A stretch of 34,658 bases of DNA, taken from Promethearchaeota archaeon (GTDB taxonomy: Archaea > Asgardarchaeota > Lokiarchaeia > Sigyniarchaeales > SOKP01). This document shows positions 12,801-34,658 of the stretch, piece by piece. Within the stretch, counting starts at the first letter, position 1. Each line of letters begins with the position of its first letter. Under the pieces are notes generated by a model that worked only from the letters and a program-made list of their open reading frames with translations, was not told where the DNA came from and did no database searches. A program made the position numbers and the translations under genes. The stretch lies in contig JBHLNS010000036.1 in NCBI GenBank assembly GCA_048941285.1, forward strand, positions 1 to 34,658, given 5' to 3'.

Positions 12801-15800
12801 ATATCTATTGCTTCATGATATAATTCGATTGCTTGATCATAGTTTCCTTGTTCAATTTGTTTTTGAGCTTCTTCCAGTATATTAAAAGCTTTTTCTTTTT
12901 CTTTTTCTTGGAACAACCTTAATTCTTCTTCTTTATTCAGTTTCTCTTGTTTTTCTCTCATTTTTTGTTCTTCAAATTCAATTTTCTTCAGAATCTGCTC
13001 TTGAAATAATGAGTCTTCTTGGTCTCTTCTTACTTTTTGTTCAAATTCTTTAAATTGACGTAGATCTTCTTCTCTCTTTTTCTCTTGAATTTTTGAAATC
13101 ATTTCTCTAATAGAACCGGTAGGGAAATTAATTTCATTTAAAATTAACTCCGCTTGAATGTAATTTTTAATTGATTTTTCATATTCGCCTTGATTTAATA
13201 GATTTTGTGCATTATCCATTATGCTAAAAGCTTCTGACTTGCGTTTTTCCATATGCTTAATTAAATCTTCTCTTTTTTGTATTTCAATTTTCTTTTCTTG
13301 AATTTTTTTCTGTTCTTGAAGCATGTACTCACTAATTCTTTTTTGAAATAAATCTTCCTCTTTTTGATGTTTCAAGGAGCTTTCAAATTCCTTTTGTTTT
13401 TCACTCTCTTTTTCTTTTTCCCGTTGTTTGATTGTCTGAATTGTATCATTTAATAGTCTTAAGTATCGATCTTCCCAGCCAATCTCCCTGAGAAGTTCAA
13501 TAGCTTTATTATAATTTGCAATAGCATTATTGAAATTTTCATTTTCAAAGAGTATGTCTCCACTTTCTATTAAATTAAACGCTTTTTGCTGTCTAGCCAA
13601 ATTTTGGGCAGAAAGTTGTTTTTGTTTTTCAAATACTTCTTTCTGTATCAATAGTTCTGATTTTTCTCTTTCCGCCTGATATCTTATTCGTTCAATAAAT
13701 GCTCTATCTTCAGTTTCTTTTCTAATTGCTTTTTGTAATTCTCTTTGTTTATTTAATTCATCTTGTCTTTTTTTATTCTCAATTGAAAATATTGCCTCTT
13801 GGATGATGGAAATTTCTTCAGTCCATTGAATCTGAGCAAATATATTTGCAATATTATAATAAGTTTGAAGGGCATCATCATATTTTTTTTGAGAAAGAAA
13901 ATCCTGAGCCTTTTCTAGCAAATTAAAAGCCTCTTGCTTCTTTTCCTCCCGATAAGCAAATTCTTTTTCCTTCTCTCTAAGAAAAATCTTCCTTTTTACT
14001 AAGTCCTGATGTTGAGCTTTCATTTCTTTTGCAATACGCTCTTGAAATGCTTTTTCTTGCTTCTCACGATCTAATTTAGCTTGAAATTTAATTTGATTTT
14101 GAATATCTTTTTCTCTTTTCACATTTTCAATTTCGATTATTGCATTTTGGATAAGATTGATTTCATTCTGCCATTGAGCATCAGCAAAAAATGTAATTGC
14201 GTATTGAAGTATTTCAATAGCTTCATCAAAATTCCCTTCTTTAACATTAATTTGGGATTCATCAAGTAACCTGAAACCTGCTTCTCTTTTTTCTTCACGG
14301 AATTTTGCCTCTTTTTCACGTTCCATTAATTCAACTTTCTTTTTCTTAAGTTGTTCACGTTCTTCCCGTAAATATTTAGAAATTTGCTTTTGAAACTCTT
14401 CATCTTTCTTTTGTCTAGCGATATTTTCTTTCAATTCTTTTTGTTTTCTTATATTTTGTTTTCTTTTTAGTTCTTCAACCTCTCTTATTGATTCTTCAAT
14501 CAAAGGTATTTCCTCAGCCCATTGAATTTCAGCAAAAATGTTTGCGGCATTTTGATAATTTAGGATAGTTTTATCATAATCACCTTTTTTTAAGAAATCT
14601 ATAGCGGAATCTAAGAAGTCAAATGCTTGATTTCTTTTTTGTTCAAACATTTTGATTTCTTCTTCACGATCTTTAATTACTATTTCTTTCTTTTTTAAGC
14701 GTTCACGCTCTTTATTTATTAGAGCTCCTATTTGCTTCTGGAATTCTAATTCATCCAGGTTTCTTTCTTCTAATTTCTTTTGATGCTCATATAGTTTTTT
14801 AAGTTGTGTCTGTTTAAGTATTTCCACATTAGAGATCGTGTTTTGAACCATTGACCTATATGGCTCCCATCCAGGACCTAGATCTTTAAGGATTGGTAAA
14901 GCTTTATGATATATATTTATAGCTTCCTCGAAGTTTTTATCCTTTAGAATTTCATCTGCTTTATCTAATAACCTAAACAGGTCTTCTTCTTTATTTGCCT
15001 CGTCTCTCCTTTTTTCTTCATAATCTCTTCTTTTTTTGTCAAGTTCTTTTACAGATTCGATATAATGTTCCTTTTGTTTTTGTTGTATAGAATTTTGAAG
15101 TATTCGTAAATCTGATTGTCTTCGTTCTATTAATTGATTAGAAATCTTTTCTCTTTTTTGTTTGTTTTTTACAGTCTCAATTAAATTTGAAATTGGTTGA
15201 ATATATGAATCCCATTCTATTGATTTAAGAAGTTCAATTGCTTGATTGAATCTATCAATCGATTCTTCGTATCTATTTTCTCTCTCGAGCCTATTTCCGA
15301 TATCTATTAAATTAAAAGCTTTTAGTTGGAGCTCTTCCTCATACCTTTTCTTTGTCTCATATTTATCTAATCTTTCTTTTTTTATTTCTGCCTCTTTTTC
15401 TAGTATAACCTTCTGATCTTCAATATCCCTCCTTAAAGCTAATGGCTTCTCTATTTGATGGGTCTCAAATTCTAATTTATCTTGTTTAAGCTTTTCAATA
15501 ATAGTTTGAATTTTTTGAATTTGAACATTCCAACCAATAGATTTTAATAATTCAATTGCTCTTTCATAGTTCATTATTGCATTATCAAATCTCCTGTCTT
15601 TTTCAAATATTTTGGCAGCATCAATATGAGCGAATGCCTCATTCTGTGTATTCTCTTCATGTTGTTTTTTCTTTATAAACTTCTCCAAGACCTCTGATTT
15701 TTCAATACTACTTTTCTTCCCAAACATGCCAACAACTTGAGGTTTCTCATCTGAAACTGGCGTAGGAGCTTCTATTTTTAATTCGATTTCTGATTCTTGA

Positions 15801-16258
15801 TATTTTTGATCAATTTGTTGTTGTTCTGACTTCTTTACGAGTTTATTTATTTTAATTTTTAAATTCTCTAATTGGGTTTCAGACCAACCAGCTTCATTTA
15901 ATAATTTAATAGCAGATAAATATTGTTGAATAGCATCTTCAAAAAATCCGTCAAACTCTAGCTTTTTCGCTCCTTCTAAGATAATAAACGCTTGATCCTG
16001 TAATTGTTCAATTTGAGCTTTAGCTTGAGTTCGCTGATATAAAGTATCTTTTTTAAGAAAATCTCTTAATTCTCCTATTCTATCATAAATTTCTTGAATT
16101 CTATGCATCAAATATCCACTTTTTTTCAAAAAATCAGCAGCCTTTTGATAATTTGAAATTGCTTCTTGCAAGTTTTTCTCTTCTTCAAATTTTTGAGCAA
16201 TTTCTAGAAATTTTAAAGCTTCTTGTGCTAGTTCTTCTGGATTCTGCAATTTAAACAA
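9890..16258 (-). CDS. Giant (2122 aa) alpha-helical repeat protein: 18 MIT/TPR-like helical units separated by E/K/R/Q-rich helices
   Basis: Recurrent AFxxLxxAxxxxxxxxYDxAIxxYxxAxxILxEIx(W/F) with a ~116 aa period. No TM segment. TTG start. Confidence 0.85.
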   Translation of the reverse strand: MFKLQNPEELAQEALKFLEIAQKFEEEKNLQEAISNYQKAADFLKKSGYLMHRIQEIYDRIGELRDFLKKDTLYQRTQAKAQIEQLQDQAFIILEGAKKLEFDGFFEDAIQQYLSAIKLLNEAGWSETQLENLKIKINKLVKKSEQQQIDQKYQESEIELKIEAPTPVSDEKPQVVGMFGKKSSIEKSEVLEKFIKKKQHEENTQNEAFAHIDAAKIFEKDRRFDNAIMNYERAIELLKSIGWNVQIQKIQTIIEKLKQDKLEFETHQIEKPLALRRDIEDQKVILEKEAEIKKERLDKYETKKRYEEELQLKAFNLIDIGNRLERENRYEESIDRFNQAIELLKSIEWDSYIQPISNLIETVKNKQKREKISNQLIERRQSDLRILQNSIQQKQKEHYIESVKELDKKRRDYEEKRRDEANKEEDLFRLLDKADEILKDKNFEEAINIYHKALPILKDLGPGWEPYRSMVQNTISNVEILKQTQLKKLYEHQKKLEERNLDELEFQKQIGALINKERERLKKKEIVIKDREEEIKMFEQKRNQAFDFLDSAIDFLKKGDYDKTILNYQNAANIFAEIQWAEEIPLIEESIREVEELKRKQNIRKQKELKENIARQKKDEEFQKQISKYLREEREQLKKKKVELMEREKEAKFREEKREAGFRLLDESQINVKEGNFDEAIEILQYAITFFADAQWQNEINLIQNAIIEIENVKREKDIQNQIKFQAKLDREKQEKAFQERIAKEMKAQHQDLVKRKIFLREKEKEFAYREEKKQEAFNLLEKAQDFLSQKKYDDALQTYYNIANIFAQIQWTEEISIIQEAIFSIENKKRQDELNKQRELQKAIRKETEDRAFIERIRYQAEREKSELLIQKEVFEKQKQLSAQNLARQQKAFNLIESGDILFENENFNNAIANYNKAIELLREIGWEDRYLRLLNDTIQTIKQREKEKESEKQKEFESSLKHQKEEDLFQKRISEYMLQEQKKIQEKKIEIQKREDLIKHMEKRKSEAFSIMDNAQNLLNQGEYEKSIKNYIQAELILNEINFPTGSIREMISKIQEKKREEDLRQFKEFEQKVRRDQEDSLFQEQILKKIEFEEQKMREKQEKLNKEEELRLFQEKEKEKAFNILEEAQKQIEQGNYDQAIELYHEAIDIFRNIQWDEEIELIQNSIIAVEDKKREAEIRKQQELQLSIEKEKQERYFQEKLIKEMKSQREEIKRKEIILREKEKELSYLEKRKEEAFDILEEAQNYISLGKFDDAIERYHDVANIFAQIQWIEEIPTINKAIKNIEEKKRENDLIKQKSISEEIEKEKENYEFMERVRILRETERIKALEERERFEREKQLTRQYLEKEKEAFKFIDTGYNLLHQKNFNEALKNYQNATNLLTEIGWESDYLRLIKDTIKVIEVRKRDMERKKELEIESLKQRKSEEEHFQKKISEYMQREQERLRTKKIQIQKQEKLKQLIETRKTEAFDILNEAESYFNRGEYDQAIERYRKAELILNEIGFPTNSVREMIHKIQEKTKEDWIAKQKNLEAQLKQAQEEHKFQKQIANSIKVNEIRLKAKQKEIENQKEFYAYMEKRKEEAFNLLEKAEIYMNQLQYDKALEYYHTAELILNEIAFPTDSIRELVLKVQEKKREYHLQKQKDLELKLQKEREEWEYQQKVAENSRLEQERLKQKDLKILEREQLRSRLEERKEQAFKTLDDGEKFLKEQNYDNALVCYRRAGMILNELQFPTDSINNMIFKINRLKDQKTELENLEVKKELEKLEEERALSMLIEERRRQEREKKKAQQLALQEREKRIQEQMSVRESAYSLLEEASKSLKHHIPNYNEAISLYVQARHILAENIGWEPEIKNLDNLIRDLQKEQVNFLEKRRLEEQARIQRENEYAIFQEEVKKRRMEQERMKAAQEKQYRDIVIKRQQAEKIRDDGLKLIDEGKKWAAYHDFDRAYEIFNSAISKFQEIGWDEEIKYIETEIKNTKKLEDKVINEELRIQTIQEQLEEQRFLEKERREKEEFELKETIGEVSELADSIISLIEERRQEQKLAESEQKKEVKAKAREFRKEMTNLIKFKQELKEEITKKEDEKTQFQQKLEEAKEREKVDSLKKLIKDTAEKKKK
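11498..14275 (-). repeat. Intragenic tandem duplication of a four-unit block (1389 nt = 463 codons)
   Basis: Equivalent Phe codons of repeats 7, 11 and 15 start at 14275, 12886 and 11497, exactly 1389 nt apart. Unit types match pairwise (7/11, 8/12, 9/13, 10/14). Confidence 0.8.
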
Positions 16259-19311: not shown

Positions 19312-19833
19312 ATGTCAAGTTTCAAATTAAAAGTATTATTAACTGGAGCCGCAGCTGTTGGAAAAACAAGTCTTGTTCAACGTTTTATCAAGAATAGATT
19401 CCAAGCAAACTATAAATTGACTGTTGGTGTTGATATATTAACTAAGGATGTGGAATTTAGACCTGGAGAAATCGCTACCTTAAGCATTTGGGATATTGGG
19501 GGTCAGCAGCGTTTTGAATTTATCAGATCAACATTTTATAAAGGGGCAGCAGGAACATTATTAGTGTTTGATTTAACAAGAGAACAGACATACACAGAAA
19601 TTCGTAAGTGGCTTACTGAGATACGCCAATTTGCAGGTGATATTCCATTTGTTTTAATTGGAAACAAAGCAGATTTAATGGAAGATGTTGGGGTCGTCAT
19701 AGATCGAGATGAAGCTCGCTCTTTCGCAGAAAATGAGGGAAGTATCTATATTGAAACTTCTGCTAAAACGGGTATTAATGTTGATGAAGCTTTTACTGAA
19801 CTCACCCGTCGAATTATTGATTCTCGAGTATAA
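19312..19833 (+). CDS. Rab-like small GTPase
   Basis: G1 GAAAVGKTS, G2 TVGVD, G3 WDIGGQ, G4 NKAD, G5 ETSAK. RabF-like motifs FYKGA and LVFDLT. No C-terminal prenylation tail. Confidence 0.93.
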   Translation: MSSFKLKVLLTGAAAVGKTSLVQRFIKNRFQANYKLTVGVDILTKDVEFRPGEIATLSIWDIGGQQRFEFIRSTFYKGAAGTLLVFDLTREQTYTEIRKWLTEIRQFAGDIPFVLIGNKADLMEDVGVVIDRDEARSFAENEGSIYIETSAKTGINVDEAFTELTRRIIDSRV

Positions 19834-22656: not shown

Positions 22657-24552
22657 CTATTGTTGTAGATTTTTTAATAATTGTTCTAATTCTAATATTT
22701 TTTCATCGATTCTTTCATTATATTTATTAATTTCTTTCTTTTTTTCTTCAAGTTTATCTTTAGTAATTTGATTTTCTAATTCTTGCTTCTCCAGATCTGC
22801 ATCCATCTTAAATAAATTAGCTTTTCTTATTTTTAATTCTATTAATTCTCTTTTAATTTTTTCTACTTCTGTATTTTTGATAGTAGAAGGAGTTTGAGTA
22901 TTTACAAAATCATGAATCTCTCTCACCGGAATCGTATGATCTACAGCTTCTGCGTGTTCTATTCGGGTAGTAGATGTTGGAGATGATAGACTTTCTTCAA
23001 ATCCCACAAAATCTTTGATTTTTTTATTTAGAGTTTGACTTGGAGGAGTTTTTAAATTTATATTATTTATATTTTTAACATGACCATAAGCAGTTGTTTT
23101 CATTTTGTCTTTGGCATCTTTTGGGACAACCCCAATAGTCTTTGGTCTAATTTTCACCATAAAATCTTCAGGATTTAATTTTAAGACTTCTTTTTTAACT
23201 TCAACTTGAGATTCTAAAACTTTATCTTGATCATCTAATTTTTTACTTGGCTGAATCGACTGTTTAGATTCAACTGGTTCTGTCCTCTCTTTTAATTTCA
23301 AATTATCATCCACGACTTTTTTTTGCGAGATTTCTGATTGAGATCTTTCAGATGATAACGGCTGAGCAACTTCCATAGCTTTAATTGAAATTTTCGGTTT
23401 CATTTTAATTTCTTTTTCGATTGGTTCAATTACTTCAGAAGGTTTAGCTTCTTGAACACCAATTGTTTCTTTAGAAATTTCTGAATCTTGCTGAATTTGT
23501 TGAGGAATATCTGTTGCTTTTAACATCTCTATAATTTTCTGCGATTTTTCGAAGAATTCTTTTCCAAGAGAATCATCTCCTAATTCAATGCATAGGTAAC
23601 TAATTTTATCAAATAATAATGCTGCTTTTTCAAAATCAGCTGATTTTAATGCGATTGTAGCTTCTTCTATCAGTTTATCTCTTTCTAATAAAGGTTTTAA
23701 TAAAGGGGAAACCTCAGCACTCATTTCTAATATATCTGCAATGATTTTAATCATTTTATCTCGATTGCTAGGATCATTCGCTATCATTGAATATGCCTTT
23801 AAACCTAAAAAGTTTTCAATTTGTACTGGAGATAAAGCTCCTTTCAAATCTTGTTTATTCCCTATTATTGCTGTGTGAGCATGAGGTGCTTGTTCTTTTA
23901 TTAATTCTAAGAAAAACTTACTCTTATCAACATTTTCTAAAGTAGAATCTGTGACTAAAATAACTGCATCGCTGCCTTTAATGAAGTTATTCCAGAGATA
24001 ACTGAATTGTTCTTGTCCCGCAAAATCCCATAAATGAAAATGCAACTTTCCTATTTTCACGGTTGCAATATCACCTGTAATTGTAGGAATATGTTGTACT
24101 GGGATCTCTTCTGCTCTTATTAATTTTGTTATTGTTGTTTTACCAACTCCAGAAAATCCAACTAGTGAGATTTTTGGCCGAAGATTTTTATGGATTGAAT
24201 CTACAAATGGATCAAAAACCTCAAAAGTTTTTTTGTCATATCTATCATCTAGAATTTCTTCAAACAAATTAATAAAATCAGTTCTACATCTCAATAATTC
24301 CTTTTTTATATTTTCAAATTTATCTGTTAAGCCAGAAAGAAATAATATTATTAAATTCAAATCTTTTTTTGTTATATACGAGACCTTGAACTTATAATAA
24401 TCATAAGATTCAACTCTATCTTCCCTTCTGGTATCTTCATCTTTTATAATCTCTGAAACAAGATAATTTAAGACTTCTTGTTTAAGAGCTTTACCAAAAT
24501 GTCTATAATATAAGAGTTCATTCTCTTTATATATTAAAATTTGCCTTAGTAT
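22657..24552 (-). CDS. Longin-like domain + Arf-like small GTPase + helical (MIT/TPR-like) unit + low-complexity linker + C-terminal coiled coil (631 aa if started at ATA 24552)
   Basis: GFSGVGKT, HIPTI, LWDFAGQEQF, W-x-x-F, DST and GNKQD. The frame stays open 64 codons upstream of the track's TTG (24360): ILRQILIYKENELLYYRHFGK...YKFKVSYITKKDLNLIILFL. GGTGA lies 6 nt before the ATA. Confidence 0.85.
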   Translation of the reverse strand: MLRQILIYKENELLYYRHFGKALKQEVLNYLVSEIIKDEDTRREDRVESYDYYKFKVSYITKKDLNLIILFLSGLTDKFENIKKELLRCRTDFINLFEEILDDRYDKKTFEVFDPFVDSIHKNLRPKISLVGFSGVGKTTITKLIRAEEIPVQHIPTITGDIATVKIGKLHFHLWDFAGQEQFSYLWNNFIKGSDAVILVTDSTLENVDKSKFFLELIKEQAPHAHTAIIGNKQDLKGALSPVQIENFLGLKAYSMIANDPSNRDKMIKIIADILEMSAEVSPLLKPLLERDKLIEEATIALKSADFEKAALLFDKISYLCIELGDDSLGKEFFEKSQKIIEMLKATDIPQQIQQDSEISKETIGVQEAKPSEVIEPIEKEIKMKPKISIKAMEVAQPLSSERSQSEISQKKVVDDNLKLKERTEPVESKQSIQPSKKLDDQDKVLESQVEVKKEVLKLNPEDFMVKIRPKTIGVVPKDAKDKMKTTAYGHVKNINNINLKTPPSQTLNKKIKDFVGFEESLSSPTSTTRIEHAEAVDHTIPVREIHDFVNTQTPSTIKNTEVEKIKRELIELKIRKANLFKMDADLEKQELENQITKDKLEEKKKEINKYNERIDEKILELEQLLKNLQQ

Positions 24553-24558
24553 GTTGTT

Positions 24559-24563
24559 TCACC
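24559..24563 (-). promoter_or_regulatory. Archaeal Shine-Dalgarno-like GGTGA upstream of the ATA codon
   Basis: Minus strand reads GGTGA-AACAAC-ATA-CTA-AGG. Confidence 0.5.
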
Positions 24564-25016
24564 GATGAGGTATGATATATTTATTAAAAATTACCATTAA
24601 AACTAATATATATTCAATTACAATATTCAAATTAACATAAATTACCATATGATTTTGATTTTTCTTTTTTAACAAAACAACCTATAACTAATATCCTTTT
24701 ATTCAATCTTTTAAATTTTTTTTATTAAAAATATTATTAAGATAGTATGAAAAATTTGCACATATATATTGTTCAATTAATGTAAATCTAGTTATTTATT
24801 TCTTTTTGCCATTAAAATAAATTTATATCGATATTAATACTAATATAATGCGAATTAAAGTGGTTCTACTATCATTTCAAGGCTTAAAAATTCAGAAAAA
24901 GTAAATTTTTTCATCACTTTAGGAGTTTTTAGATAATATCTTTTAAGAATTATTTAGATGAAAAGTTTTTTGTAAAAAAATAAGTAAGATTAACTCGTAT
25001 TTGGAAACAAAATGAT

Positions 25017-25026
25017 AAAAAAAAAA
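25017..25026 (-). terminator. Oligo-T terminator candidate downstream of the 2661 aa gene
   Basis: T10 run on the coding strand about 25 nt after the stop codon. Confidence 0.4.
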
Positions 25027-25051
25027 TAAAAAGATTTGATGAGATTTAGTA

Positions 25052-28000
25052 TTATTTTTCATCTGATTTTAAATTATAATAAACATCTTCAAGGATTTCA
25101 AGATATTCCATCAGGACTTTATTTGTCAATGATTTTTGCTCATATGAGGTCTTGATGACTTGTAAAAGATATTTTGGAAATATCAAATCTATATAAAAGT
25201 CAGATAATAACGCGTAATATTCATTATTCATTTCGTCTTGGAAAACAGCAATCAATTTATTTTCCCATAAAGCTTTTATAACTCCATACGGATCAGCAAC
25301 GCCTTTTACTTTTAGCTTTTCCAATTCTTGTCTTGAAACAATCGCACTTCTTAATAACCTTAGTGTTAAATGAACCTGAGGATTACTTAAAAGTGTAACA
25401 ATTTTTAAATTATCCTCATTAGATGGGATATAACTCTGAAAAAATTTCTTCACTATGTCTATATACTCTTTTTTAAATTGTGTTGGAAGTCCACGATTAA
25501 TAGGGTCTTCAATTATTTCTATAGGAGGAACCCTCAACATATAAACATCATTAATTAAAACAATTAATTCTGAGAGTAATCCTTTTACAGAAACTTGTTT
25601 TATGATCCCTTTCTTTAACAAATCGGATATGGTTGCTTCTAAATCAATAAACTTTTCGATATACTTATCTTTAAACCATATAACTAGTTCTGCTTTACTT
25701 ATCACACCTGCTTCTCTTAAATTATCTATAATCATTCTTTTTGCTTCATCTTGATATGTAAGTGCTAATATTTCTTCATCACTAAAAGATGGATATAATG
25801 ACAGGCGCTGGAAATAAGATGGCATAAGCATTTTAAATGAATCATCTTCAACATTTTCTATGAGACCCCGTAAAACATCAGCCATTCCTCCTTCATAAAG
25901 ATCTGGATCGTCTTCTAAATCTAAAATTAAAAGAAGATAATAACCTTGTTCAGGTCCAGTGTAATAAGAAATAATATTCAGAGGACCAACACTCAGAGTT
26001 ATTGTCCCTTTTTCTCCACTATATTCATGTGTACTATATATTTGCATACAAGTTTTTTCTGAAATTATAGTTTCTTCCGGATATTTCGCTAAAATCTCTG
26101 TTCCAACTCTCTCATTCCATTTCATCAATACTAATCCAACTGGTGTTAATTCATGAACTTTCGCAATATCACTAGATCTTTTGTGTAATTTTTCACTCTT
26201 CTTAATTTTCTCTACCTTAACATTTAGTATTTCTGCTAAAGAAAGATCAAGGTTATTCCATCTATGATTCACTCTCTCCACGATAAAGGCTTCTTTATTG
26301 CGGTATAATAAAGATTCGTCTACATCTTTGCCTTTTTTAATGCTTTTTTTCATTTCCCTTACTTTTCTTACGAAAGCAGGTATTTTAGCATAATGGTATA
26401 CTCTATATCCTACAATACTCCCAACTATAGCAAGTGCCGCAGATAAGATCAGTAAGAAATAAAATGTTGGAACTCCTGGAAAAATTTGTTCCATTTCAAC
26501 AACAATAATAATATCAAATTCTTGAGAAATATAATATAATTTTGTAATGTTAATGGTCCCTGTGAGTGTGTTTGATGTAAAAAAGGCATTTATATTATAT
26601 GTTGGAAAATTGCATATGTATGTACCATTTCCAATATGAGTAAAATTATAGAGATTTCCCTTTATTGTTAAAGTTATTGTAGCATCAAGCAACCAACTAT
26701 CACCTTTCGTAGGATCAGTTAGAATTATTTGTATTGGAACGGGATTGCCTTTTACTACACTCGTTTTCCTATTTTGAAAATTATGGCTTAAAATAGGTTC
26801 TCCAATCTCTCTTTTTTTAATGGTTAAAATAATCATCGCATTCTTACGGTCATAATTATCTTTTTCTAAAGCAATAATCAAGAAATATTCACCCAAAGCT
26901 CTTGATTCTGTGTTAAAATCTAAGATATAAGTGTTATCTCTAGCAGAAATTATATCTCCATAACCATTTTCAATTACGTTCCCTAGACGATCATAACGTT
27001 CCCACACATAATATTGAGTCTTTAAGTTGACAATTTTAGTCCCTCTGAGTGCATCAGTAAAGACTAAAGTGAAATTAACAGCATCCTGCACATAAACACT
27101 TTCAATCTTTCTGAAAAATTCTGAGGACTGATTTAGCAGTGTTAGGCGATTTAGAACGATTAAATCAAGATCTTTAGTGGTAATCTTATAATGCTCTTTA
27201 TCTATAGTGAATCTTACAGTATACTCATCAGCGTCAAGTAAAGAAGTATCGATTGTCTTTAGGTAATATTTTAAATCTGAATCATATTGAACTGGGCCAT
27301 AAATGGAAGGAGCTTCAACAATAGTATAAGTTAAAGAACCGATTATTTCATAAGATACTGTTCGTGAATATTGAATTGAAAGTAAAAGAATAAAATCGAC
27401 TGATAAGGAGGTTTCAATGACCGCATGTAAGAGTTGTGCTTTAGAGAATCCTGTAAGGGAAAATGTTCCCGTTCCTGAAGAATAATCCGAAATACTATAC
27501 TTTTGCCCTCCAATAGTAATGTTCATTGCTACTTCTGAAGGAAAGAAATAGTTTGATCCACTTTTTATGCTTTTAACCCATAATATAGATTCATCTTCCT
27601 TCCAACTACTCTCAGTTGCACTTATTTGAAGTGAACCTCCATTTGTAATCCCTCTTTCTGTTCTTGTGCAATTTAATGTTTCCAAAAATTGGTTCTTATA
27701 AAATCCTTGAATATATTCCACTTTGATAATAGCATTAAATATGATATTTGGATCACTCTCAACAGTAAATAAGAATTGATTGCCTATAGGATAGATAGTC
27801 CTGTCGTCTATACTTAAAGAGCCGGTTCCATCCGGATAGCCATAATCTAATAAATATGTGAAGCCTTCGTTTGTAGTAATGGAAATATTTGTTAAACTTG
27901 ACAAATCTACGATACTCCAATCAGAGCTATCATAACATTCAGAAATCTCAAAAGTTATATTACTGATTATCCATCCTTCCACTTCGGATAGAAGGGAAAT

Positions 28001-31000
28001 TTCACTACTAACATTAAATTTAGAATATTGTACATTTATTAAATCCCTGATAAAATATGCATCTGCGATAATATCAACAGTATTCTCAAATGTACCTCTG
28101 ATGATAAACTCAAAATTATTATCATTGGTGCGACTGGCTTGATTTAGATTCAAAGTGATTCCTGTCCACGTACCTTGAGTATAATCCCATCCACTGTTAT
28201 TGTAATTAAAAGTATAAACAAAAGTACCATAAGGATCTTCAATTGTAACATTAATATTAGTGATATCAGTATTCCAAGAAATATTATAGAGATTTAATAC
28301 TATTTTAGATAAATTCCAATGAGTTTCTAGGTCAGAAATCAAGAAATCAAAGTGATGATCGATACTTTGGAAGACAATGTTTTCTACAGTAAGCGTTTCA
28401 GAATTACTGCCATAAGAATTTAACGTCATATCTGCACTTTCCAACCAATATACTGATATGTCTGAATCATCATTGCTAGATTGATTTAATTCTAATTGAT
28501 TTTCCAAAATATTTAATTGAAGAATTCTATCTGAAGGAATAGTATATCCCGATTTATAAGCGGATATTATGATTATATACCTCTTTGCGCTAACAAGTTT
28601 TTTTGTATCAATTTCAACAAAATGCCTTCCTTCATTATCTTCTTCTAAGGAGAAAGCTCCTGATATTACAGTATTCCCCCCTAATAATAATGTATATCTC
28701 ATTGAGTCCGCATAAACAGGTCCTAAAAGAGATTCATACCCTGCTTCCACTTTACTCACATTAAATAGCGTCCGTAGCTTTAATAAAGTACCCCATTCAA
28801 TTTCAATATAATCCGTAGGATTTAATGATATCAGTTCTGTTTGGAATTTGCTTAAATCGATTAAAATTCTAAATTCTAAATTATCCTTGTTTGTGATTGT
28901 GAAACTTATATTATTGACTTCAGCGGGGCCTCCAACTGATTGATTGAAAAGTTTATTAACCCCAAAAAATTCAATTTGGAGTGAATAATCCCCCCCTATC
29001 CCTAAGGATGTTAACCACCTCAATGTTGCCTGCCCATTTATGTCAGTGGTTAGATTTGCAATACTTGGACCTAATGGATTGTTAAGAGTCAACTTAAGTT
29101 TCACTCCACTAACAGGCGTTATAGGAGCATTAATTGTTTGCACTGTAAATTCTACAGTGGTTAATTCTACTTGTACTTGAATGGTGGTATTAACAGTAGT
29201 AATGTCTCCTGAAGCAATATCAATTATAGGTGGATTATAACTTGGGTTTCTATAGTAGATAGTGTAATTATACGTGGAAGGAGGAGCATTAACCCACCAA
29301 AACTTAGTATGCCCTGATGAATCAATTATACACTTTTTAAGCTGGTGTGTGGCGTTACCTACGATTATCCATCCAGAATCAACAGGATCAAGATCAACAT
29401 CAATTACTTCAAAGAAATGAGTACTTACATCACAAATTATATCAATAGTTTGAAATGGTTGATCAACTATTATGGCTTGAGATGTAGAATTTACTATCTC
29501 GACAATCTCTCCAATACTTGAATGAATGGTTGCTGTGAAATTATATGCGCCTTCAAGAATGTTTGTAAAACTTACACTACCATCAGTACCGGTGATACCC
29601 TGTTCTATTAAATCAAAATGTTGATACATTGAAATAGTAACATTAGGAAGCAAATTACCATATAAATCTAATGCATTAATTGAAATATCTACTTCAAGAA
29701 GCGGTTTTGAATGTTTTTCATCACTTATACTGAAAAAAGTATTAGGGTCATATTGGTTGTAATATTCAGTTGTTAACCATCCCTCAGATCTATAATTATT
29801 GGATACACGAAATTCATCCAAATACCCCTTAAAGCAACCTGAAGATTCTCCAATATAAAATAAACTTGAATCTGTGACAAGAGGATATCCACCTATATTT
29901 GTTGAATTTGGATTTGTACCATTAATATAGCTTCGTAGATAAGTACCATCATAAGAATAGGTAATATAGGTCCATCGCTGACGAGTAATTTCTCTCGGAT
30001 TATAAACTGTACCACGAGTAACAAATCTGATATCCGGTTGAAAAGAACCCAGACCAGGACCATGATAACTACGATAAATACGCGCAAGGCTAATAGAAGA
30101 TGCTTTATAGAATACACGGGGCTCTCCAGCATTTAACCATTCTTGGTCAGTTGCGTAATTAGGGTAAATCCAAAATGAAAATGTAAATATATTATCTCCA
30201 TTAAAAATTTGAGATCCTTGATTGATAATTATTCTATTATCACCCGATCCTGTAAAATATCTCGCTCCATCTATAATACTTGTTCCAAAAAATTGAGTAC
30301 CATAAGGGGTTCCGTCATAATCATTTGAAGTTGAATCTTTAATATAGTCACCGGTTCCACTTGGTTCATTAAAATGCCAGACTGATTTATAATCTAGCCA
30401 TACTTCCGTTGGATTTTGACGAGAATTCATAGTAGAATTGCCATAATACATAAATATTTCAGTATCTTCTACCGTAGATAAAAAAGGGATGCAAACCCAT
30501 GCAACTAATCGGGCATGTGTTCCATTATAGGTTTGATCAAACAATTCTATTTGGTGATCTAACCATTGACCATCAGTTGAAAATGCTATGTCATCTCCAT
30601 CAGATTGCACATCAAAGCGAAGATCTGTATCGAAAATCGAGACCAAAAAGGGAAAGTTAACATGGCTGCCTATTCCATCAACTTTTGTGTGATCTATTGT
30701 AATTATTTTATAATAATCAAAATAATCTGCATTTGGAGTAATATCATTTACTATTTGTTCACTTCCTACTGAACCAAATGTACTAGGATCATTCTGGTTA
30801 TCATATTCTGTCCTTAACCAGGCATCTGATCGAATTGTCGATGAGATTTTAACCTCATCAATAATCGCATCAATAGGTCTAGCTCCCGTAGGACTATTTC
30901 CAATTGTAATTGGCCAATTATTTTCACGTAATGCTCCTGTTTTACTTTCTGTATAAACAGTATTTCCATCTAAAACAAGATTTATATTTGAGCCATCATA

Positions 31001-33037
31001 TCTAATTGAAACTAAATACCATGTATTGATTGAAAGAGGACCTGATGTAGCTTCTACTGTGGATGTTCCAGCTGCATCATTAGTTCCGGTTTTAATCCTT
31101 CCTCTCAAGTAATATGGACCATTCTCGGTTAATGACTGATTATATGTCCCTAGCATCCAAACATGATATTCTGAACTATCACTCGTACCTGAGTTTTTGG
31201 ACAAAACACGAGCATCACTATACCCCGACCAAATTGAATCAAAGGATTCATATTTGACCCAAGCTTGAATAGTAATCTTACTTCCTGAGACACTCCACGT
31301 TCCTATATTAATATTATCGCTACCATCATCATGTTCAAAATCTTGGCCATCCCCGATCTTACCTTCAATATCTACTGAACCTGTATTAGTTCCATCTCTA
31401 TTACGAGAGGTAGAATCCAAAAAGTCATCGTCTAAGTGATATACACCTTCATAATAACTATCCCAGACCCCTTCGGGATTTTCTCGAGCAGCCATGGTTG
31501 AATTTCCATAATACATAGCAATAGTTGTATTGACAGTAGAATATAAATATGGAATTTGAACCCATACATCTAATTGAGCTTCTGTACTGCTATAAGTTTG
31601 ATCAAATACTAAAATTTCATGATCTAACCAATCACCACCAGCAGCAAAAGCAATATCATCCCCATCTGACTGAGCGTGATATTTTAAATCTTTATCAACA
31701 ATTGAAAATAAGAACGGAAAATTATTATGTATTGCTGTACCAGAAACTTCATTATGATCGATGGTAATAAGTTTATAATATGCGAAATAATGGGAATTAG
31801 GGGGTTCCCAAATGACAACTTGTTCATTTCCAATAGTATAAAAAGAATTAGGATTATATTGATTATTGTATTCTGTTAATACCCAACTACTTGAAAGAGC
31901 AGTTTTAAGAATCCTAAACTCTGAAATTGCTCCTGAACCCCAAATACCTGACCCCCCAATCGTTGCCAAAATTGAAAATCGATCCCATGATAAATGTTGA
32001 TTTGCAATATCAGAACCGGTATCAGATAAATCCAATATACCATCTATATATTCATATGCAGTTGACAAACTCCTAGATCTTGCATAGGTAAATTGAAACC
32101 ATGTATCAGCAGCCCATGAATCTTTTATGCCATAAATACCTTCACTATTATCTGATGTTACTTCTAAATAAACATTTACAGTTCCACTAGTGGTAAATCT
32201 CATCTCAGGTGATAAATCAGGAGTATTGCCTTGGAAAAAAACCATATTAGCGCTTGTATTGTCAATCGTATTATCAGGCTTAAACCAAGTTTGAAAACTC
32301 ATGTCATCTATAGGGCCATTGATACTATTTATATAAAAATAATCATTACTTCCATCAACAGAAATTGCTGTACCTACTTTTCCATCATAAAAACGTGTGT
32401 CGCTAGTAAATCCAGTTGTAATCAAATCATAATTGTTTGCAGTACTATCTAAAATGTTAGAAGATAAAGGATTTTGATTCATATGCCATACCGCTACATA
32501 ATTGCTATTCCATACTCCAGCTGGATTTTGTCGTGAATTCATTGTTGAGTTACCATAGTACATTCTAATAACAGTATCAATAGTAACAGAGAGTGCTGGA
32601 ATTCGAACCCAAACTACTAGTTTAGCATGTGTTCCATTATAGGTTTGATCAAATAACTCAATCTCATGATCTAACCAAATATTATTGGAAGAAAAAGCAA
32701 TATCATCTCCATCAGATTGAACATCAAGACGTAAGTCTGTATCAAAAATTGAAATGAGAAAAGGAAAATTGTTAAAACCACTTGTTCCTGAAACTTGATT
32801 ATGATCTATGGTTATAATTTTATAGCGATCAAAATAATGCGCATTAAGCGGAGCATTTAAATTTAAATTTCTTTTTAATTCATCGGTACTATCTTTATTC
32901 TTTATAGATTCAATATTGGGTGATAGAGAAAATAATGGTGTGCTAATTAACAACGGGATTATAATTGTGAACAATAAGAATAGAAGTGCCTTAATCTTTT
33001 TTTTTGTAATGATTGATCTAATATTTTTAGATGTCAT
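25052..33037 (-). CDS. Giant receptor-like membrane protein: N-terminal signal/TM, 3x(DUF2341 + LamG/ConA-like), beta-sandwich stalk, TM helix, cytoplasmic uDENN/longin-like + 2 winged-helix-like domains
   Basis: Three ~350 aa repeats (YKIITIDH...NFPFL.SI.D.DL...QSDGDDIAF...WLDHEI...W(V/I).IP...MYYGNSTM...VWH.N...DEFR.S....S.W..TEY.NQ..P). TM FYFLLILSAALAIVGSIVGY followed by a basic stretch. Cytoplasmic GLVLMKWNERVGTEILAKYP. Many N-x-S/T sequons in the ectodomain. Confidence 0.85.
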   Translation of the reverse strand: MTSKNIRSIITKKKIKALLFLLFTIIIPLLISTPLFSLSPNIESIKNKDSTDELKRNLNLNAPLNAHYFDRYKIITIDHNQVSGTSGFNNFPFLISIFDTDLRLDVQSDGDDIAFSSNNIWLDHEIELFDQTYNGTHAKLVVWVRIPALSVTIDTVIRMYYGNSTMNSRQNPAGVWNSNYVAVWHMNQNPLSSNILDSTANNYDLITTGFTSDTRFYDGKVGTAISVDGSNDYFYINSINGPIDDMSFQTWFKPDNTIDNTSANMVFFQGNTPDLSPEMRFTTSGTVNVYLEVTSDNSEGIYGIKDSWAADTWFQFTYARSRSLSTAYEYIDGILDLSDTGSDIANQHLSWDRFSILATIGGSGIWGSGAISEFRILKTALSSSWVLTEYNNQYNPNSFYTIGNEQVVIWEPPNSHYFAYYKLITIDHNEVSGTAIHNNFPFLFSIVDKDLKYHAQSDGDDIAFAAGGDWLDHEILVFDQTYSSTEAQLDVWVQIPYLYSTVNTTIAMYYGNSTMAARENPEGVWDSYYEGVYHLDDDFLDSTSRNRDGTNTGSVDIEGKIGDGQDFEHDDGSDNINIGTWSVSGSKITIQAWVKYESFDSIWSGYSDARVLSKNSGTSDSSEYHVWMLGTYNQSLTENGPYYLRGRIKTGTNDAAGTSTVEATSGPLSINTWYLVSIRYDGSNINLVLDGNTVYTESKTGALRENNWPITIGNSPTGARPIDAIIDEVKISSTIRSDAWLRTEYDNQNDPSTFGSVGSEQIVNDITPNADYFDYYKIITIDHTKVDGIGSHVNFPFLVSIFDTDLRFDVQSDGDDIAFSTDGQWLDHQIELFDQTYNGTHARLVAWVCIPFLSTVEDTEIFMYYGNSTMNSRQNPTEVWLDYKSVWHFNEPSGTGDYIKDSTSNDYDGTPYGTQFFGTSIIDGARYFTGSGDNRIIINQGSQIFNGDNIFTFSFWIYPNYATDQEWLNAGEPRVFYKASSISLARIYRSYHGPGLGSFQPDIRFVTRGTVYNPREITRQRWTYITYSYDGTYLRSYINGTNPNSTNIGGYPLVTDSSLFYIGESSGCFKGYLDEFRVSNNYRSEGWLTTEYYNQYDPNTFFSISDEKHSKPLLEVDISINALDLYGNLLPNVTISMYQHFDLIEQGITGTDGSVSFTNILEGAYNFTATIHSSIGEIVEIVNSTSQAIIVDQPFQTIDIICDVSTHFFEVIDVDLDPVDSGWIIVGNATHQLKKCIIDSSGHTKFWWVNAPPSTYNYTIYYRNPSYNPPIIDIASGDITTVNTTIQVQVELTTVEFTVQTINAPITPVSGVKLKLTLNNPLGPSIANLTTDINGQATLRWLTSLGIGGDYSLQIEFFGVNKLFNQSVGGPAEVNNISFTITNKDNLEFRILIDLSKFQTELISLNPTDYIEIEWGTLLKLRTLFNVSKVEAGYESLLGPVYADSMRYTLLLGGNTVISGAFSLEEDNEGRHFVEIDTKKLVSAKRYIIIISAYKSGYTIPSDRILQLNILENQLELNQSSNDDSDISVYWLESADMTLNSYGSNSETLTVENIVFQSIDHHFDFLISDLETHWNLSKIVLNLYNISWNTDITNINVTIEDPYGTFVYTFNYNNSGWDYTQGTWTGITLNLNQASRTNDNNFEFIIRGTFENTVDIIADAYFIRDLINVQYSKFNVSSEISLLSEVEGWIISNITFEISECYDSSDWSIVDLSSLTNISITTNEGFTYLLDYGYPDGTGSLSIDDRTIYPIGNQFLFTVESDPNIIFNAIIKVEYIQGFYKNQFLETLNCTRTERGITNGGSLQISATESSWKEDESILWVKSIKSGSNYFFPSEVAMNITIGGQKYSISDYSSGTGTFSLTGFSKAQLLHAVIETSLSVDFILLLSIQYSRTVSYEIIGSLTYTIVEAPSIYGPVQYDSDLKYYLKTIDTSLLDADEYTVRFTIDKEHYKITTKDLDLIVLNRLTLLNQSSEFFRKIESVYVQDAVNFTLVFTDALRGTKIVNLKTQYYVWERYDRLGNVIENGYGDIISARDNTYILDFNTESRALGEYFLIIALEKDNYDRKNAMIILTIKKREIGEPILSHNFQNRKTSVVKGNPVPIQIILTDPTKGDSWLLDATITLTIKGNLYNFTHIGNGTYICNFPTYNINAFFTSNTLTGTINITKLYYISQEFDIIIVVEMEQIFPGVPTFYFLLILSAALAIVGSIVGYRVYHYAKIPAFVRKVREMKKSIKKGKDVDESLLYRNKEAFIVERVNHRWNNLDLSLAEILNVKVEKIKKSEKLHKRSSDIAKVHELTPVGLVLMKWNERVGTEILAKYPEETIISEKTCMQIYSTHEYSGEKGTITLSVGPLNIISYYTGPEQGYYLLLILDLEDDPDLYEGGMADVLRGLIENVEDDSFKMLMPSYFQRLSLYPSFSDEEILALTYQDEAKRMIIDNLREAGVISKAELVIWFKDKYIEKFIDLEATISDLLKKGIIKQVSVKGLLSELIVLINDVYMLRVPPIEIIEDPINRGLPTQFKKEYIDIVKKFFQSYIPSNEDNLKIVTLLSNPQVHLTLRLLRSAIVSRQELEKLKVKGVADPYGVIKALWENKLIAVFQDEMNNEYYALLSDFYIDLIFPKYLLQVIKTSYEQKSLTNKVLMEYLEILEDVYYNLKSDEK
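26332..26515. repeat. 184-nt direct repeat, copy 1 (TM/juxtamembrane coding region); copy 2 at 34475..34658
   Basis: Ungapped manual alignment shows 14 mismatches in 184 nt, with perfect runs of 49 and 45 nt. Confidence 0.85.
29718..32854 (-). repeat. Three tandem DUF2341+LamG modules (about 1050 nt each; starts near 32854, 31807 and 30739)
   Basis: Clear protein-level triplication. Modules 1 and 3 share an identical 29-nt stretch, gcatgtgttccattataggtttgatcaaa. Confidence 0.8.
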
Positions 33038-33164
33038 TTTTGATCAAATTCAAATATAAAATAAGTTTGTTTAAAATATATTCATATTAAAAAAAAAATA
33101 GAGTATTACATATTTATATTTGAAGTTTGTGAGTATATAGAATATTTATTAATTATAGTTATTT

Positions 33165-33180
33165 AAAAAAAAAAAAAAAA
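33165..33180 (-). terminator. Oligo-T terminator candidate downstream of the upstream paralog
   Basis: T16 run on the coding strand starting about 9 nt after the stop codon at 33189. Confidence 0.5.
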
Positions 33181-33188
33181 TATTATTT

Positions 33189-34658
33189 TTATTTCGATTT
33201 TTCTACATCTTTTAATTTAAAATAAGCTTCTTCCAGTATTTTAAGATATTCAATTAAAACTTTTTTATTTTTTGATTTTTGCTCATATTCAATCTTTACA
33301 GCTTTCAATAAGTATTTTGGAAAAAGGTAATCAATATAAAAATCTGAAAGAAGAGCATAGTATTCAATATTCTTGTCATCTTGAAATACTTTAATCATCT
33401 GATTATCCCAAAGTAGTTTCAAAACAGTATAAACATCTTCAACTCCTTTTTTTCTGAGCTTCTCAAGATCTTGCCTTGTAACTATTGCCGTTCTTAAAAG
33501 TCTTAAAGTTTCATAAACTTGTGGATTAACGATGATCTCAACAATTTTTATGTTATCTTCTTCTGCGGGGCGATAATTCTGGAAAAAGTTTTTAATATCA
33601 TTAGTATACTCCTTAGCAAATTGAGAGGGTAAACCATGACTAGTTGGGTTATCCAATAACTTAAGAGGTGGGGTTCTTACCATAAAAATATCCGTAGTTA
33701 GTAAAACCAGTTCTGAATGTATATTTTTTACAGAACTAACCTTTATAATTTCTAGTTTAATGAGTTCTGTCAAAATTGCATCTAAATCAAAAAATCCTTC
33801 TATAAACTTATCTTTGAGCAAAATATTCAATTCCGATTTGGTGATAACTCCATCCTCTCTTAATAGATTGATAATTGTTCTAATAATCTTGTTTTGATAA
33901 GCTAATGCTAAAATCTCTTCAGAACTGAGCGACGGATATAATGATATGCGCTGAAAAAGTATTGGAATCATTTGAATATAGGAATCATCTTCAAGATTTT
34001 CTAGTACATCACGCAAAATGTCAGCCATTCCACCTTCATAAAGATCGGGGTCATCATCTGTATTCAAGATTAAAATGAGATAATAACCTTCTTCTGGTCC
34101 TGTATAATAGGATAAAATATTTACTACTTCTGCAGTTAATGTTATAGTCCCTTTTTCTCCGCTATATTCATGTGTACTGTATACCTGCATTAAAGTTTTT
34201 TCTGAAATCGGAACATCTTTAGGATATTTAGCTAGAATTTCCGTTCCAATTCTTTCATCCCATTTCATAACTATTAACCCAAGAGGTTTTTTATCGTGTA
34301 CTTCAGTAATTTTTGAGACCTTTCGTTTAGATATCGATCTCTTTTCCTCTTTCTCAACGGTTATTCCAAGTATATCTTCTATTGATAAACCAATTTTCGC
34401 CCAATCTCGTTTTAATATTTCTCCAATTAATATTTCTTTATCACTATACAAAAGTGATTCTGCTATAGTTTTATCTTTTTTAATGCTTTTTTTCATTTCC
34501 CTTACTTTTCTTACGAAAGCAGGGGTTTTAGCATAATGGTATACTCTATATCCTACAATACTCCCAACTACGGCAACTATCGCAGATAAGATTAGCAAGA
34601 AATAAAATGTTGGAACTCCTGGAAAGATCTGCTCCATTTCAACGACAATGATAATATC
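33189..34658 (-). CDS. C-terminal part (5'-truncated by the window edge) of a paralog of the 2661 aa receptor-like protein: TM + uDENN/longin-like + winged-helix-like domains
   Basis: The frame is open to the window edge (DIIIVVEMEQIFPGVPTF...) and is colinear with the neighbour's last ~490 aa. The track's Met at 34637 is therefore internal. Confidence 0.9.
   Translation of the reverse strand, partial: DIIIVVEMEQIFPGVPTFYFLLILSAIVAVVGSIVGYRVYHYAKTPAFVRKVREMKKSIKKDKTIAESLLYSDKEILIGEILKRDWAKIGLSIEDILGITVEKEEKRSISKRKVSKITEVHDKKPLGLIVMKWDERIGTEILAKYPKDVPISEKTLMQVYSTHEYSGEKGTITLTAEVVNILSYYTGPEEGYYLILILNTDDDPDLYEGGMADILRDVLENLEDDSYIQMIPILFQRISLYPSLSSEEILALAYQNKIIRTIINLLREDGVITKSELNILLKDKFIEGFFDLDAILTELIKLEIIKVSSVKNIHSELVLLTTDIFMVRTPPLKLLDNPTSHGLPSQFAKEYTNDIKNFFQNYRPAEEDNIKIVEIIVNPQVYETLRLLRTAIVTRQDLEKLRKKGVEDVYTVLKLLWDNQMIKVFQDDKNIEYYALLSDFYIDYLFPKYLLKAVKIEYEQKSKNKKVLIEYLKILEEAYFKLKDVEKSK
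34475..34658. repeat. 184-nt direct repeat, copy 2 (may extend beyond the window)
   Basis: About 92% identical to 26332..26515 by manual count. Confidence 0.85.

Follow-up and report, generated by a model that had tools for sequence, protein, structure and literature searches.

Does a giant surface protein that ends in a longin domain belong with the small GTPase encoded next to it, or do the two merely share a piece of chromosome? The question arises on contig C61 (JBHLNS010000036.1; here, the window), a complete contig of 34,658 bases and ~29% G+C from a Lokiarchaeal Promethearchaeota assembly (GCA_048941285.1; 3.55 Mb, 101 contigs, 94% complete), whose genes have their closest homologues among named proteins of Promethearchaeota/Lokiarchaeia metagenome-assembled genomes. 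Its minus strand holds three co-oriented genes, as the original prediction from the DNA letters had claimed: A (positions 33189..34658), B (25052..33037), and an Arf-family GTPase gene (22657..24552). From its open reading frame, Pfam matches and a transmembrane scan, B encodes a 2661-amino-acid (aa) type-I surface protein fused to a module of one longin domain and two winged helices (WH), here called the tail. Of A, only the 3′ part is present (489 codons covering the end of the ectodomain, the transmembrane segment at ~34542-34610, the juxtamembrane segment and the tail), and its open frame runs off the contig end; the missing 5′ part is probably on contig C53 of the same assembly. On balance, the comparisons described below make it probable that the locus is a lineage-specific, fused and duplicated form of an old and widespread Asgard three-part module whose parts act together, and functional coupling of surface protein, tail and longin-Arf GTPase appears well supported by gene arrangement.

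To begin with, the tail is ordinarily a protein of its own. An exhaustive profile-free search (E <= 1e-3) yielded 290 representative relatives, mostly stand-alone proteins of ~360 aa that match from residue 2 and start at the longin; only the closest relatives have the tail at the end of 1300-2500-aa proteins. In the window's own genome, two further cassettes, on contigs C43 and C83, encode surface protein and tail as two open frames. Receptor/tail junctions were compared in this and related genomes, with 21 attempted, 18 parsed and 3 unmatched by the pattern. In all 18 parsed junctions, the receptor stop precedes the ATG of the tail gene by 2-5 nucleotides (nt), nine reading TAATG, eight being of TAAAATG type and one reading TAAATG, and most have a GGAGG/GGTGA-like stretch within the receptor's last codons. 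Taken with established knowledge, these junctions suggest that receptor and tail genes are translationally coupled. Frameshift errors were rejected as the origin of the split C43 and C83 genes, since the same stop-start overlap recurs in every parsed junction and in many genomes.

In a maximum-likelihood tree of 32 tails, A and B form sister clades within one fused clade (100/99); beside it stand the split clades of C43 type and C83 type, with family f2 outside. Other fused receptor-tail frames are also present in the order. A and B are, by this comparison, fusions of a surface protein and a normally separate ~365-aa tail protein; operon partners that become fused are a classical indication of proteins working in physical contact. 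Two variants of the cassette were observed besides. In one f2 genome (G032:C1:1857612-1874778, locus L124), three tandem cassettes ~8 kb apart have identical or near-identical tail scores, indicating recent tandem amplification of the surface-protein/tail pair. In a relative with a complete chromosome, the frame upstream of the GTPase gene that ends in a B-type tail is only 565 aa long (L033:7806-9500) and may be a shortened or broken receptor.

The GTPase gene is linked to these cassettes well beyond the window. Of the four closest longin-Arf paralogues in the own genome, three have a receptor/tail cassette within ~600 nt, in three different orientations: co-oriented beside B on C61, convergent at 94 nt from the tail gene on C43, and divergent, on C53, from a DUF2341 surface-protein gene cut off by the contig end. 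Because cassettes are few in a 3.55-Mb genome, the A-B-GTPase arrangement is, by these counts, above chance. The paralogue on contig C20 (39972-41045) has no cassette; its neighbors are two GP-motif longin proteins and a Gtr1/Rag-like GTPase that is extended at the C-terminus. These longin proteins start with FGP motifs (EIDPSFGP and RFDPIFGP), the 553-aa one resembles a sensor-domain fusion by eye, and the region (G000:C20:36340-41998) is a candidate second GTPase-regulator cluster.

Of the 61 genomes of the order, 59 contain the tail and 55 a member of the GTPase family (E <= 1e-50). All 106 listed GTPase entries were crossed with 127 of the 150 listed tail entries, the 23 weakest of these and 20 unlisted ones being left out. 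Twenty GTPase entries had a tail gene within 15 kb, a linkage that spans five genera: 13 are convergent at 47-147 nt, one is co-oriented at 171 nt, two lie at the receptor's 5′ end, and the last four comprise the window's own entry, two entries on G059:C45 and a single one on G060:C28. In five fetched loci (L110, L111, L112, L113, and L116), the GTPase gene lies between two cassettes; the same two-cassette pattern makes it probable that, in the own genome, contigs C43 and C83 are continuous.

A scan of the phylum, restricted to genomes at least 80% complete, located the tail profile in 92 of 121 genomes, which represent 17 of 25 families. Neighborhoods were scored by alignment profiles at 35 loci from 13 families outside the order, which hold 37 full-length tail-family genes. 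Of these, 17 stand in same-strand clusters with a longin-Arf GTPase gene. A co-oriented longin-Arf gene lies within 300 nt of 11 tail genes, often overlapping (families f10, f11, f14, f17, and f20), and at 761 nt from one more; for 6 others of the same set counted by a second arrangement, the GTPase gene directly follows an adjacent giant membrane protein gene, as it does at L146, where the giant gene is split. Family f9 has the order tail gene, gene for a 2100-2500-aa protein, GTPase gene, with 4-nt spacings in L151. Likewise, a co-oriented gene for a membrane protein of at least 600 aa occurs within 700 nt of 17 of the 37 tail genes, and at ~720-760 nt from two more; in five families tail and GTPase genes form a pair without any membrane protein. 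Four f14 loci (L134, L155, L156, and L157) encode, in this order, a ~340-aa protein in which only the N-terminal longin is of tail type, a longin-Arf GTPase, and a tail-family protein with a 70-220-aa C-terminal extension. The GTPase is thus flanked by two distinct proteins with tail-type longins, which is what a heterodimeric platform would lead one to expect.

A lack of conserved linkage, which would have spoken against the original prediction, is clearly not what these counts show: the neighborhood of tail, longin-Arf and giant membrane protein genes stands across many families. The specific adjacency of B and the GTPase gene reads as a recent rearrangement. Among 80 orthologue loci of the window-type GTPase gene from species genomes (68-96% identical), a tail gene lies upstream in only 4 (L028, L029, L030, and L033), which are the four closest orthologues among those with a usable upstream flank (GTPase identity 84-96%). 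Where the upstream flank reaches 1.7 kb or more (70 loci), 64 loci, L031 among them, have instead a conserved, co-oriented gene for a ~165-aa protein ~45 nt upstream. Its counterpart in the own genome is on C53 (G000:C53:5864-6352 (-)); it matches no Pfam family, its profile gave nothing meaningful among PDB sequences, and a language-model atlas offers a Roadblock/LC7 lead (score 0.89). Contig G061:C34 shows an uninterrupted order of 165-aa gene, C53-type GTPase gene (opposite strand), A, B and long GTPase gene. Together with the position of the 165-aa gene elsewhere, this order indicates that a block of C53-type GTPase gene, A and B was inserted between the long GTPase gene and its old neighbor. 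C53 very probably continues C61, with A-B flanked by longin-Arf genes on both sides. In G060, the A-B block is accompanied by a C53-type GTPase gene, and the long GTPase gene is on another contig.

The C53-type paralogues are ~690 aa long and encoded divergently from a giant A-type receptor gene (G000:C53:2714-4807 (+), L109:4329-6416, and L122:4390-6456). Their G3 motif is degenerate (RDFDGDE, RDFTGDE or RDFADDE versus WDFAGQE) and the catalytic Gln is lost (DxxGD/E), so that they may be hydrolysis-dead switches or pseudo-GTPases.

The ancestral 165-aa neighbor, the Roadblock/LC7 lead and the G061 and G060 arrangements are what would be seen if the window GTPase were a mere neighbor of B, with the long GTPase working with a possibly Roadblock-like 165-aa partner, as in MglA-MglB, and A and B working with a C53-type GTPase or with none. 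The 165-aa gene and the long GTPase gene may indeed be an MglB/MglA-like pair between which, in this lineage, the receptor block was inserted. As an account of the locus, we nevertheless consider mere neighborhood quite improbable: no fewer than four distinct assemblies, with GTPases 84-96% identical, retain the new arrangement; the GTPase paralogue classes together make up a single family whose linkage to the tail family extends across the phylum, making cross-talk plausible; and with the C53 type lacking its catalytic Gln, the long type may be the only active switch at the locus.

A second line of evidence for the three-part module comes from the surface proteins. B begins with a signal/anchor and continues with three repeats of DUF2341 + Laminin_G_3, many beta-sandwich repeats in a long array, a single C-terminal transmembrane segment and a cytoplasmic part. 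The N-terminal ectodomain block (approximate limits 29768..32860; LamG being a concanavalin-like lectin fold) is a three-fold repeat visible in the translation, with Pfam matches in three stretches each to Laminin_G_3 (E 3.7e-36; 67.7 bits versus a cut-off of 23.4) and DUF2341 (E 1.3e-18; 125 bits versus 27.6). The beta-sandwich array, with weak CarboxypepD_reg/SpaA matches at aa 1119-1170, fills the ectodomain from this block down to the transmembrane segment (26405..26470, aa ~2195, by hydropathy scan), after which 448 residues follow. These residues are predicted to be cytoplasmic from the basic stretch after the segment and the positive-inside rule, and the corresponding parts of A and B are 63% identical over 487 aa without gaps. 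The term receptor is an interpretation of the lectin-like and Ig-like ectodomains.

When 20 giant proteins of families f1, f2, f5, f9, f15, and f17 were compared, they revealed a juxtamembrane motif, R/K-I/V-P-x-x-I/V-K/R-K/Q-I/V, right after the last transmembrane segment, that is common to cassette surface proteins across families; in B it reads KIPAFVRKV (26360..26386). The giant proteins of f1/f2 have a second conserved stretch. By comparison, the ectodomains vary (Ig-like, macroglobulin-like), and DUF2341/LamG occurs only in A and B. In the own genome, a transmembrane segment followed by the motif was found in 4 of 2780 open frames of at least 150 aa, and 3 of the 4 are cassette receptors; A, which reads KTPAFVRKV, was missed by the pattern. 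The motif thus appears nearly exclusive to cassette surface proteins. The fourth frame (G000:C63:13435-16872 (+); LRFPSQVRKV) encodes 1146 aa with a transmembrane segment near residue 470 and ~660 cytoplasmic residues.

A motif restricted to cassette proteins, and constant where the ectodomains vary, can also be read from the inside out. The longin-WH protein and the longin-Arf GTPase would then be a primitive adaptor/GTPase pair that reads the juxtamembrane signal and sorts, positions, clusters or turns over surface proteins, for instance on protrusions, and the ectodomain would signal nothing inward; the mode of action would resemble that of Arf with the longin-fold sigma/mu adaptor subunits, or of SRX-SRbeta. 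The tail-GTPase pairs without a membrane protein are in keeping with such a general machine, the only PDB sequence matches of the GTPase N-terminal profile are AP-2 sigma chains (weak, E 0.17), and cryo-tomography of a cultured Lokiarchaeon is reported to show complex surface proteins on cell bodies and protrusions (PMC9834061). This cargo-handling interpretation fits the data as well as one in which the surface protein signals; the two share the same physical core, and nothing here separates them. Against it, covalent fusion of adaptor and cargo, as in A, B and the other fused forms, would be unusual for a recycling adaptor, and these loci include no linked machinery of coat or vesicle type. 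Taken as a whole, cargo handling is possible but rather unlikely.

What the tail might contribute to a joint function was approached by structure prediction. The B tail (364 aa, 25055..26146), modeled by AlphaFold2 (AF2) on a 54-sequence alignment, reached a predicted local distance difference test score (pLDDT) of 95 and a predicted template modelling score of 0.89. The model comprises a longin domain (25781..26146), a first winged helix (WH1, 25502..25780), a second (WH2, 25172..25426), and C-terminal helices that close the module. Residues 1-122 have canonical longin topology, with DSSP elements E2-11, E15-22, H30-43, E47-53, E56-62, E69-76, H81-96 and H104-120 in the bbabbbaa order. In VIA superpositions, which cover residues 1-125 only, the longin matched a Lokiarchaeal longin (8yqg_A; Z 12.4, 121 aligned, root-mean-square deviation [rmsd] 3.1), GATOR1 chains (Z 12.2 for 9o5a_H and 11.9 for 8fw5_B, a search independent of Foldseek), Ykt6 (11.6) and VAMP7 (11.5), with a range of 10-11.6 for Ykt6, VAMP7, Lst4 and FNIP2/FLCN. 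The A tail (33198..34286), with its WDERIG loop, gives E 2.4e-198 against the B tail and E 3.3e-141 against the tail profile. Topology and superposition on solved longins indicate that both tails carry the longin fold. With the N-terminus of the GTPase, which has longin topology in its model, a longin-type domain appears, as originally predicted, in each of the three genes.

A likeness to NPRL2/NPRL3 and the C9orf72 class, which the original prediction had named, was recovered in several forms. Whole-chain Foldseek searches of the PDB placed GATOR1 NPRL2/NPRL3 chains at the top (E 9e-5 to 3e-4 over 280-345 columns, at a TM-score of only ~0.2 and rmsd 17-20), followed by SEAC Npr proteins, Fuzzy-Inturned, Mon1-Ccz1, BLOC-3, Ykt6 and Sec22b. 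The beta1-beta2 loop of the tail family has the form WDxxxG (W10 in 49/54, D11 in 42/54, R13 in 28/54, and G15 in 50/54), the same spacing as C9orf72 W33-D34...G38-P39. These C9orf72 residues are described as essential in the report that defines the WD/GP motif (PMC12290439). By sequence, no Pfam family matched the A and B tails at E <= 0.1, none matched the longin part alone at E <= 10 (NPR2/NPR3 models included), and NCBIfam gave no match for the tails. In the AF2 model and structure searches, no DENN module follows the tail longin; the two winged helices stand there instead. Separately, the own genome encodes a stand-alone 131-aa longin protein (G000:C66:103776-104168 (-)) that is 24% identical to the tail longin and has the full C9orf72-like loop, WDNEIGP.

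The winged helices themselves raise another explanation, namely that the tail is a transcription regulator whose WH domains bind DNA and whose longin senses a signal; fused to the surface protein or docked on it, the tail would follow a membrane-tethered one-component logic as in ToxR/CadC. WH1 and WH2 do resemble archaeal and bacterial winged helix-turn-helix regulators (WH1 RosR at Z 9.3, WH2 Phr at 8.6, and also MecI at 8.7 and CzrA at 8.5), and the tail family profile matches the ArsR-like PH1932 by sequence (E 2.5e-4). Over 54 family members, however, they are neutral to acidic (median pI 6.3 and 5.0, net charge -1 and -3), unlike typical DNA-binding domains of this kind; the whole-chain matches are protein-binding longin-plus-WH proteins, NPRL2/NPRL3; and the conserved partner genes encode GTPases rather than regulated target operons. 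A role in transcription is therefore highly improbable.

The third component, the GTPase, had been listed at 22657-24360 with a TTG start, although its stop-to-stop frame reaches 24558. The 63 extra N-terminal residues are matched from residue 1 by three own-genome paralogues and by many orthologues beginning MLRQ. Where these orthologues have ATG, the window has ATA (24550-24552), with an in-frame TGA and a Shine-Dalgarno-like GGTGA before it, the latter 6 nt from the start. Of the 13 orthologue loci read at this position, 4 have ATG and 9 have ATA or ATT, and the in-frame TGA and GGTGA precede the codon in every case. Because the extra residues are conserved and ATA/ATT recur in the same context across orthologues, we take ATA to be the real, near-cognate start of a gene of 631 codons, and the gap between B and the GTPase gene is then 499 nt. 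A sequencing error or a broken gene was rejected as the reason for the missing ATG, given ATA/ATT at the same place in 9 of the 13 loci; near-cognate initiation appears to be conserved and may hold expression down. In the window and in loci L028-L048, gene callers choose a downstream TTG/ATG, by which half of the longin is lost (567 versus 631 aa).

The GTPase belongs to the Arf family, in line with the original prediction. It matches Pfam Arf PF00025 with 79.7 bits (cut-off 22.3; E 2.4e-22), and the top 50 Foldseek rows are all Arf/Arl proteins (Arf1, Arl1, Arf6, and the Asgard GerdArfR1, 8oun_B; E 7e-11 to 6e-9). An AF2 model of residues 1-345 (26-sequence alignment, pLDDT 87.8) shows a longin-type element order at residues 3-122 (24184..24552), a G domain at 126-273 (23731..24174) and a three-helix bundle at 285-344 (23518..23697). 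The alignment shows little or no variation in GFSGVGKTT, WDFAGQ and NKQD, and the G3 Gln is intact. An N-terminal amphipathic helix is a defining feature of Arf proteins; in the model, none precedes the G domain and a ~122-residue longin-type domain stands in its place. The order of its elements (E3-8, E11-17, H24-39, E46-51, E54-61, E66-73, H78-99, and H106-122) assigns the modeled N-terminus to the longin topology, while Pfam gave nothing for it or for the three-helix bundle, and the language-model atlas gave no usable match for the N-terminal 122 residues. The remainder (22660..23517) is a disordered region with the motif LNPEDFMVKIRPK..VPKDAK.KLKTSAYGHV, then a C-terminal coiled coil. In the C-terminal half, this motif and ~70 residues of coiled coil are conserved in orthologues P0003-P0108, and short paralogues lack both.

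The caveat attached to the original prediction, that oligo-T runs after the receptor genes and a gap of ~500 nt suggest separate transcripts, is borne out by closer reading. The 151-nt spacer between A and B (33038..33188) has T16 directly after the A stop, a second run of T10 and AT-rich, TATA-like stretches, and the AT-rich 499-nt spacer between B and the GTPase gene (24553..25051) has T-runs after the B stop; oligo-T is an archaeal terminator. Just upstream of the GTPase start, ~25 nt before GGTGA, comparison with the 13 orthologue loci showed a conserved TATA-like box, AATAAATAT, suggesting that the GTPase gene probably has its own promoter. The T-runs, the gap and the conserved box together make separate transcription of the three genes likely.

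These signs of separate transcription argue against a joint function of the three parts, as do the two counts from the orthologue loci (a tail gene upstream in 4 of 80, and the 165-aa gene in 64 of 70), and further observations point the same way. At the phylum level, 9 of the 37 tail genes have neither partner by the set thresholds; the four loci fetched from three f2 genera (G008, G011, G022, and G032) have no GTPase gene beside the cassette; and in MK-D1, GTPase genes are described as generally not lying in operons with longin genes (Tran et al., PMC10933270). The tail longin and the GTPase longin have no profile similarity (hhalign probability 0.2). As to the loop motif, the GP-motif proline follows the loop G in only 6 of 54 tail sequences, the B loop carries N where the motif has D, and the longin columns in which an arginine finger might be expected contain no near-invariant Arg, R13 being present in only 28 of 54. 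A complex prediction for the B tail and GTPase residues 1-345, run without controls, gave no call (score 0.00 against a mark of 0.32) and counts neither for nor against.

If surface protein, tail and GTPase do act as one module, its parts would be a giant single-pass, adhesin- or receptor-like surface protein, a longin-WH protein of ~365 aa and a longin-Arf GTPase. The stand-alone longin-WH protein would dock on the conserved juxtamembrane segment, and in A and B it has become a covalent tail. Held at the membrane, longin-WH modules would form a platform that binds the neighboring longin-Arf GTPases and sets their nucleotide state, thereby tying the state or position of the surface protein to the GTPase switch. 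The modules would probably act as pairs; because cassettes come in tandem pairs, heterodimers as in NPRL2-NPRL3 are suggested, and the loop motif suggests a platform of the GTPase-activating protein (GAP) type, the mechanism that we favor. What the comparisons establish are the folds, the family relations, the fusion and coupling of the genes and their conserved neighborhood; binding, dimerization, GAP or guanine nucleotide exchange factor (GEF) activity and the direction of signaling are inferred, and the A/B heterodimers, receptor-GTPase longin pairs, ligand control and outside-in pathway of the original prediction are hypothetical.

Known systems share parts of this arrangement. GATOR1 NPRL2/NPRL3 (yeast Npr2/Npr3), a longin heterodimer that is a GAP for Rag GTPases, has, like the tail, an N-terminal longin followed by small domains; Rag GTPases, like the partner GTPase here, have their own roadblock/longin-superfamily domain, and tail genes occur in paralogous pairs, as do NPRL2/NPRL3. 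Unlike these proteins, the tail has no Pfam NPR2/NPR3 match, aligns with them at the low TM-score given above and by VIA over the longin only, and shows no conserved arginine finger in the family alignment. In contrast to GATOR1, the tail is tethered to a giant surface protein or forms part of it, and by Pfam and fold the neighboring GTPase is of Arf type. C9orf72-SMCR8 (CSW) has the WDxxxG loop spacing in common with the tail and acts on Arf GTPases, but in this complex, as in FLCN-FNIP, a DENN module follows the longin where the tail family has two winged helices, and the GP proline is rare in the tail family. The GP-motif longins of Asgards (PMC12290439) are likened to the tail by motif description only, not by sequence.

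Among prokaryotic systems, MglA-MglB likewise has a small GTPase encoded beside a roadblock/longin-superfamily regulator; MglB is a small soluble roadblock homodimer, whereas the candidate regulator here has a longin and two winged helices and is membrane-tethered, and the GTPase has an added longin. The "L-G" fusions described in MK-D1 (PMC10933270) and the longin-Rag fusions of an earlier preprint (10.1101/2020.10.19.343400) have the same architecture of longin and Arf/Rag-like G domain as the window GTPase. As presented in those papers, partners are hard to assign and GTPase genes lie mostly outside longin operons, in contrast to the specific conserved partner family and membrane partner found here. 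Arf1 with adaptor sigma/mu subunits, and SRalpha SRX with SRbeta, likewise combine a longin-fold domain with an Arf-like GTPase at the membrane and with transmembrane cargo tails; the likeness is one of logic only, and no coat, large adaptor subunits or signal recognition particle components are found at the locus. The most far-reaching proposal would be an ancient Asgard GTPase system coupled to surface proteins, in which giant lectin- or Ig-like surface proteins hold paired longin-WH modules as a GAP platform for dedicated longin-Arf GTPases, the GTPase being switched once the ectodomain meets a ligand or a partner cell, and which was the prokaryotic forerunner of GATOR1, CSW and FLCN and of receptor- or cargo-coupled Arf signaling; in this full form, the proposal is speculative and we regard it as unlikely.

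Elsewhere in the window, the genes are of kinds typical of Asgards. Positions 6914-16258 carry the gene of a 2122-aa protein with many MIT/TPR repeats, an E1-like ThiF gene (1.4e-57) and an E2-like one (UQ_con, 4e-26), which together may be a ubiquitin/ESCRT-related neighborhood, and a Ras/Rab-like GTPase gene is at 19312-19833.

Several of the components have been described before: the presence of longin domains in Asgards as such, longin-GTPase fusions in cultured and uncultured Asgards (PMC10933270; preprint 10.1101/2020.10.19.343400), "NPRL2-like" Asgard longin proteins (the same preprint), and GP-motif longins (PMC12290439). A full-text literature search, covering neither supplements nor many subscription papers, found no description of longin-WH proteins fused or coupled to giant surface proteins; nor did it find one of the shared juxtamembrane motif or of the phylum-wide longin-Arf neighborhood, which the Asgard COG supplements, outside the search, may list.

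Asgard genomes encode dozens of small GTPases and longin/roadblock proteins, and which regulator pairs with which GTPase, and at which membrane, is an open problem, one in which genome layout is reported rarely to help assign regulators (Tran et al., PMC10933270). The locus and its relatives offer a concrete triple, consisting of a longin-WH family, a longin-Arf family and the giant surface proteins that have the juxtamembrane motif in common; gene fusion, translational coupling and neighborhood connect the three across much of the phylum. If binding and GAP or GEF activity prove true, membrane-anchored longin platforms for Arf/Rag-like switches would predate eukaryotes and would be tied to surface proteins thought to mediate Asgard cell-cell contacts. 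The module may thus show how such GTPase switches were first wired to the membrane.

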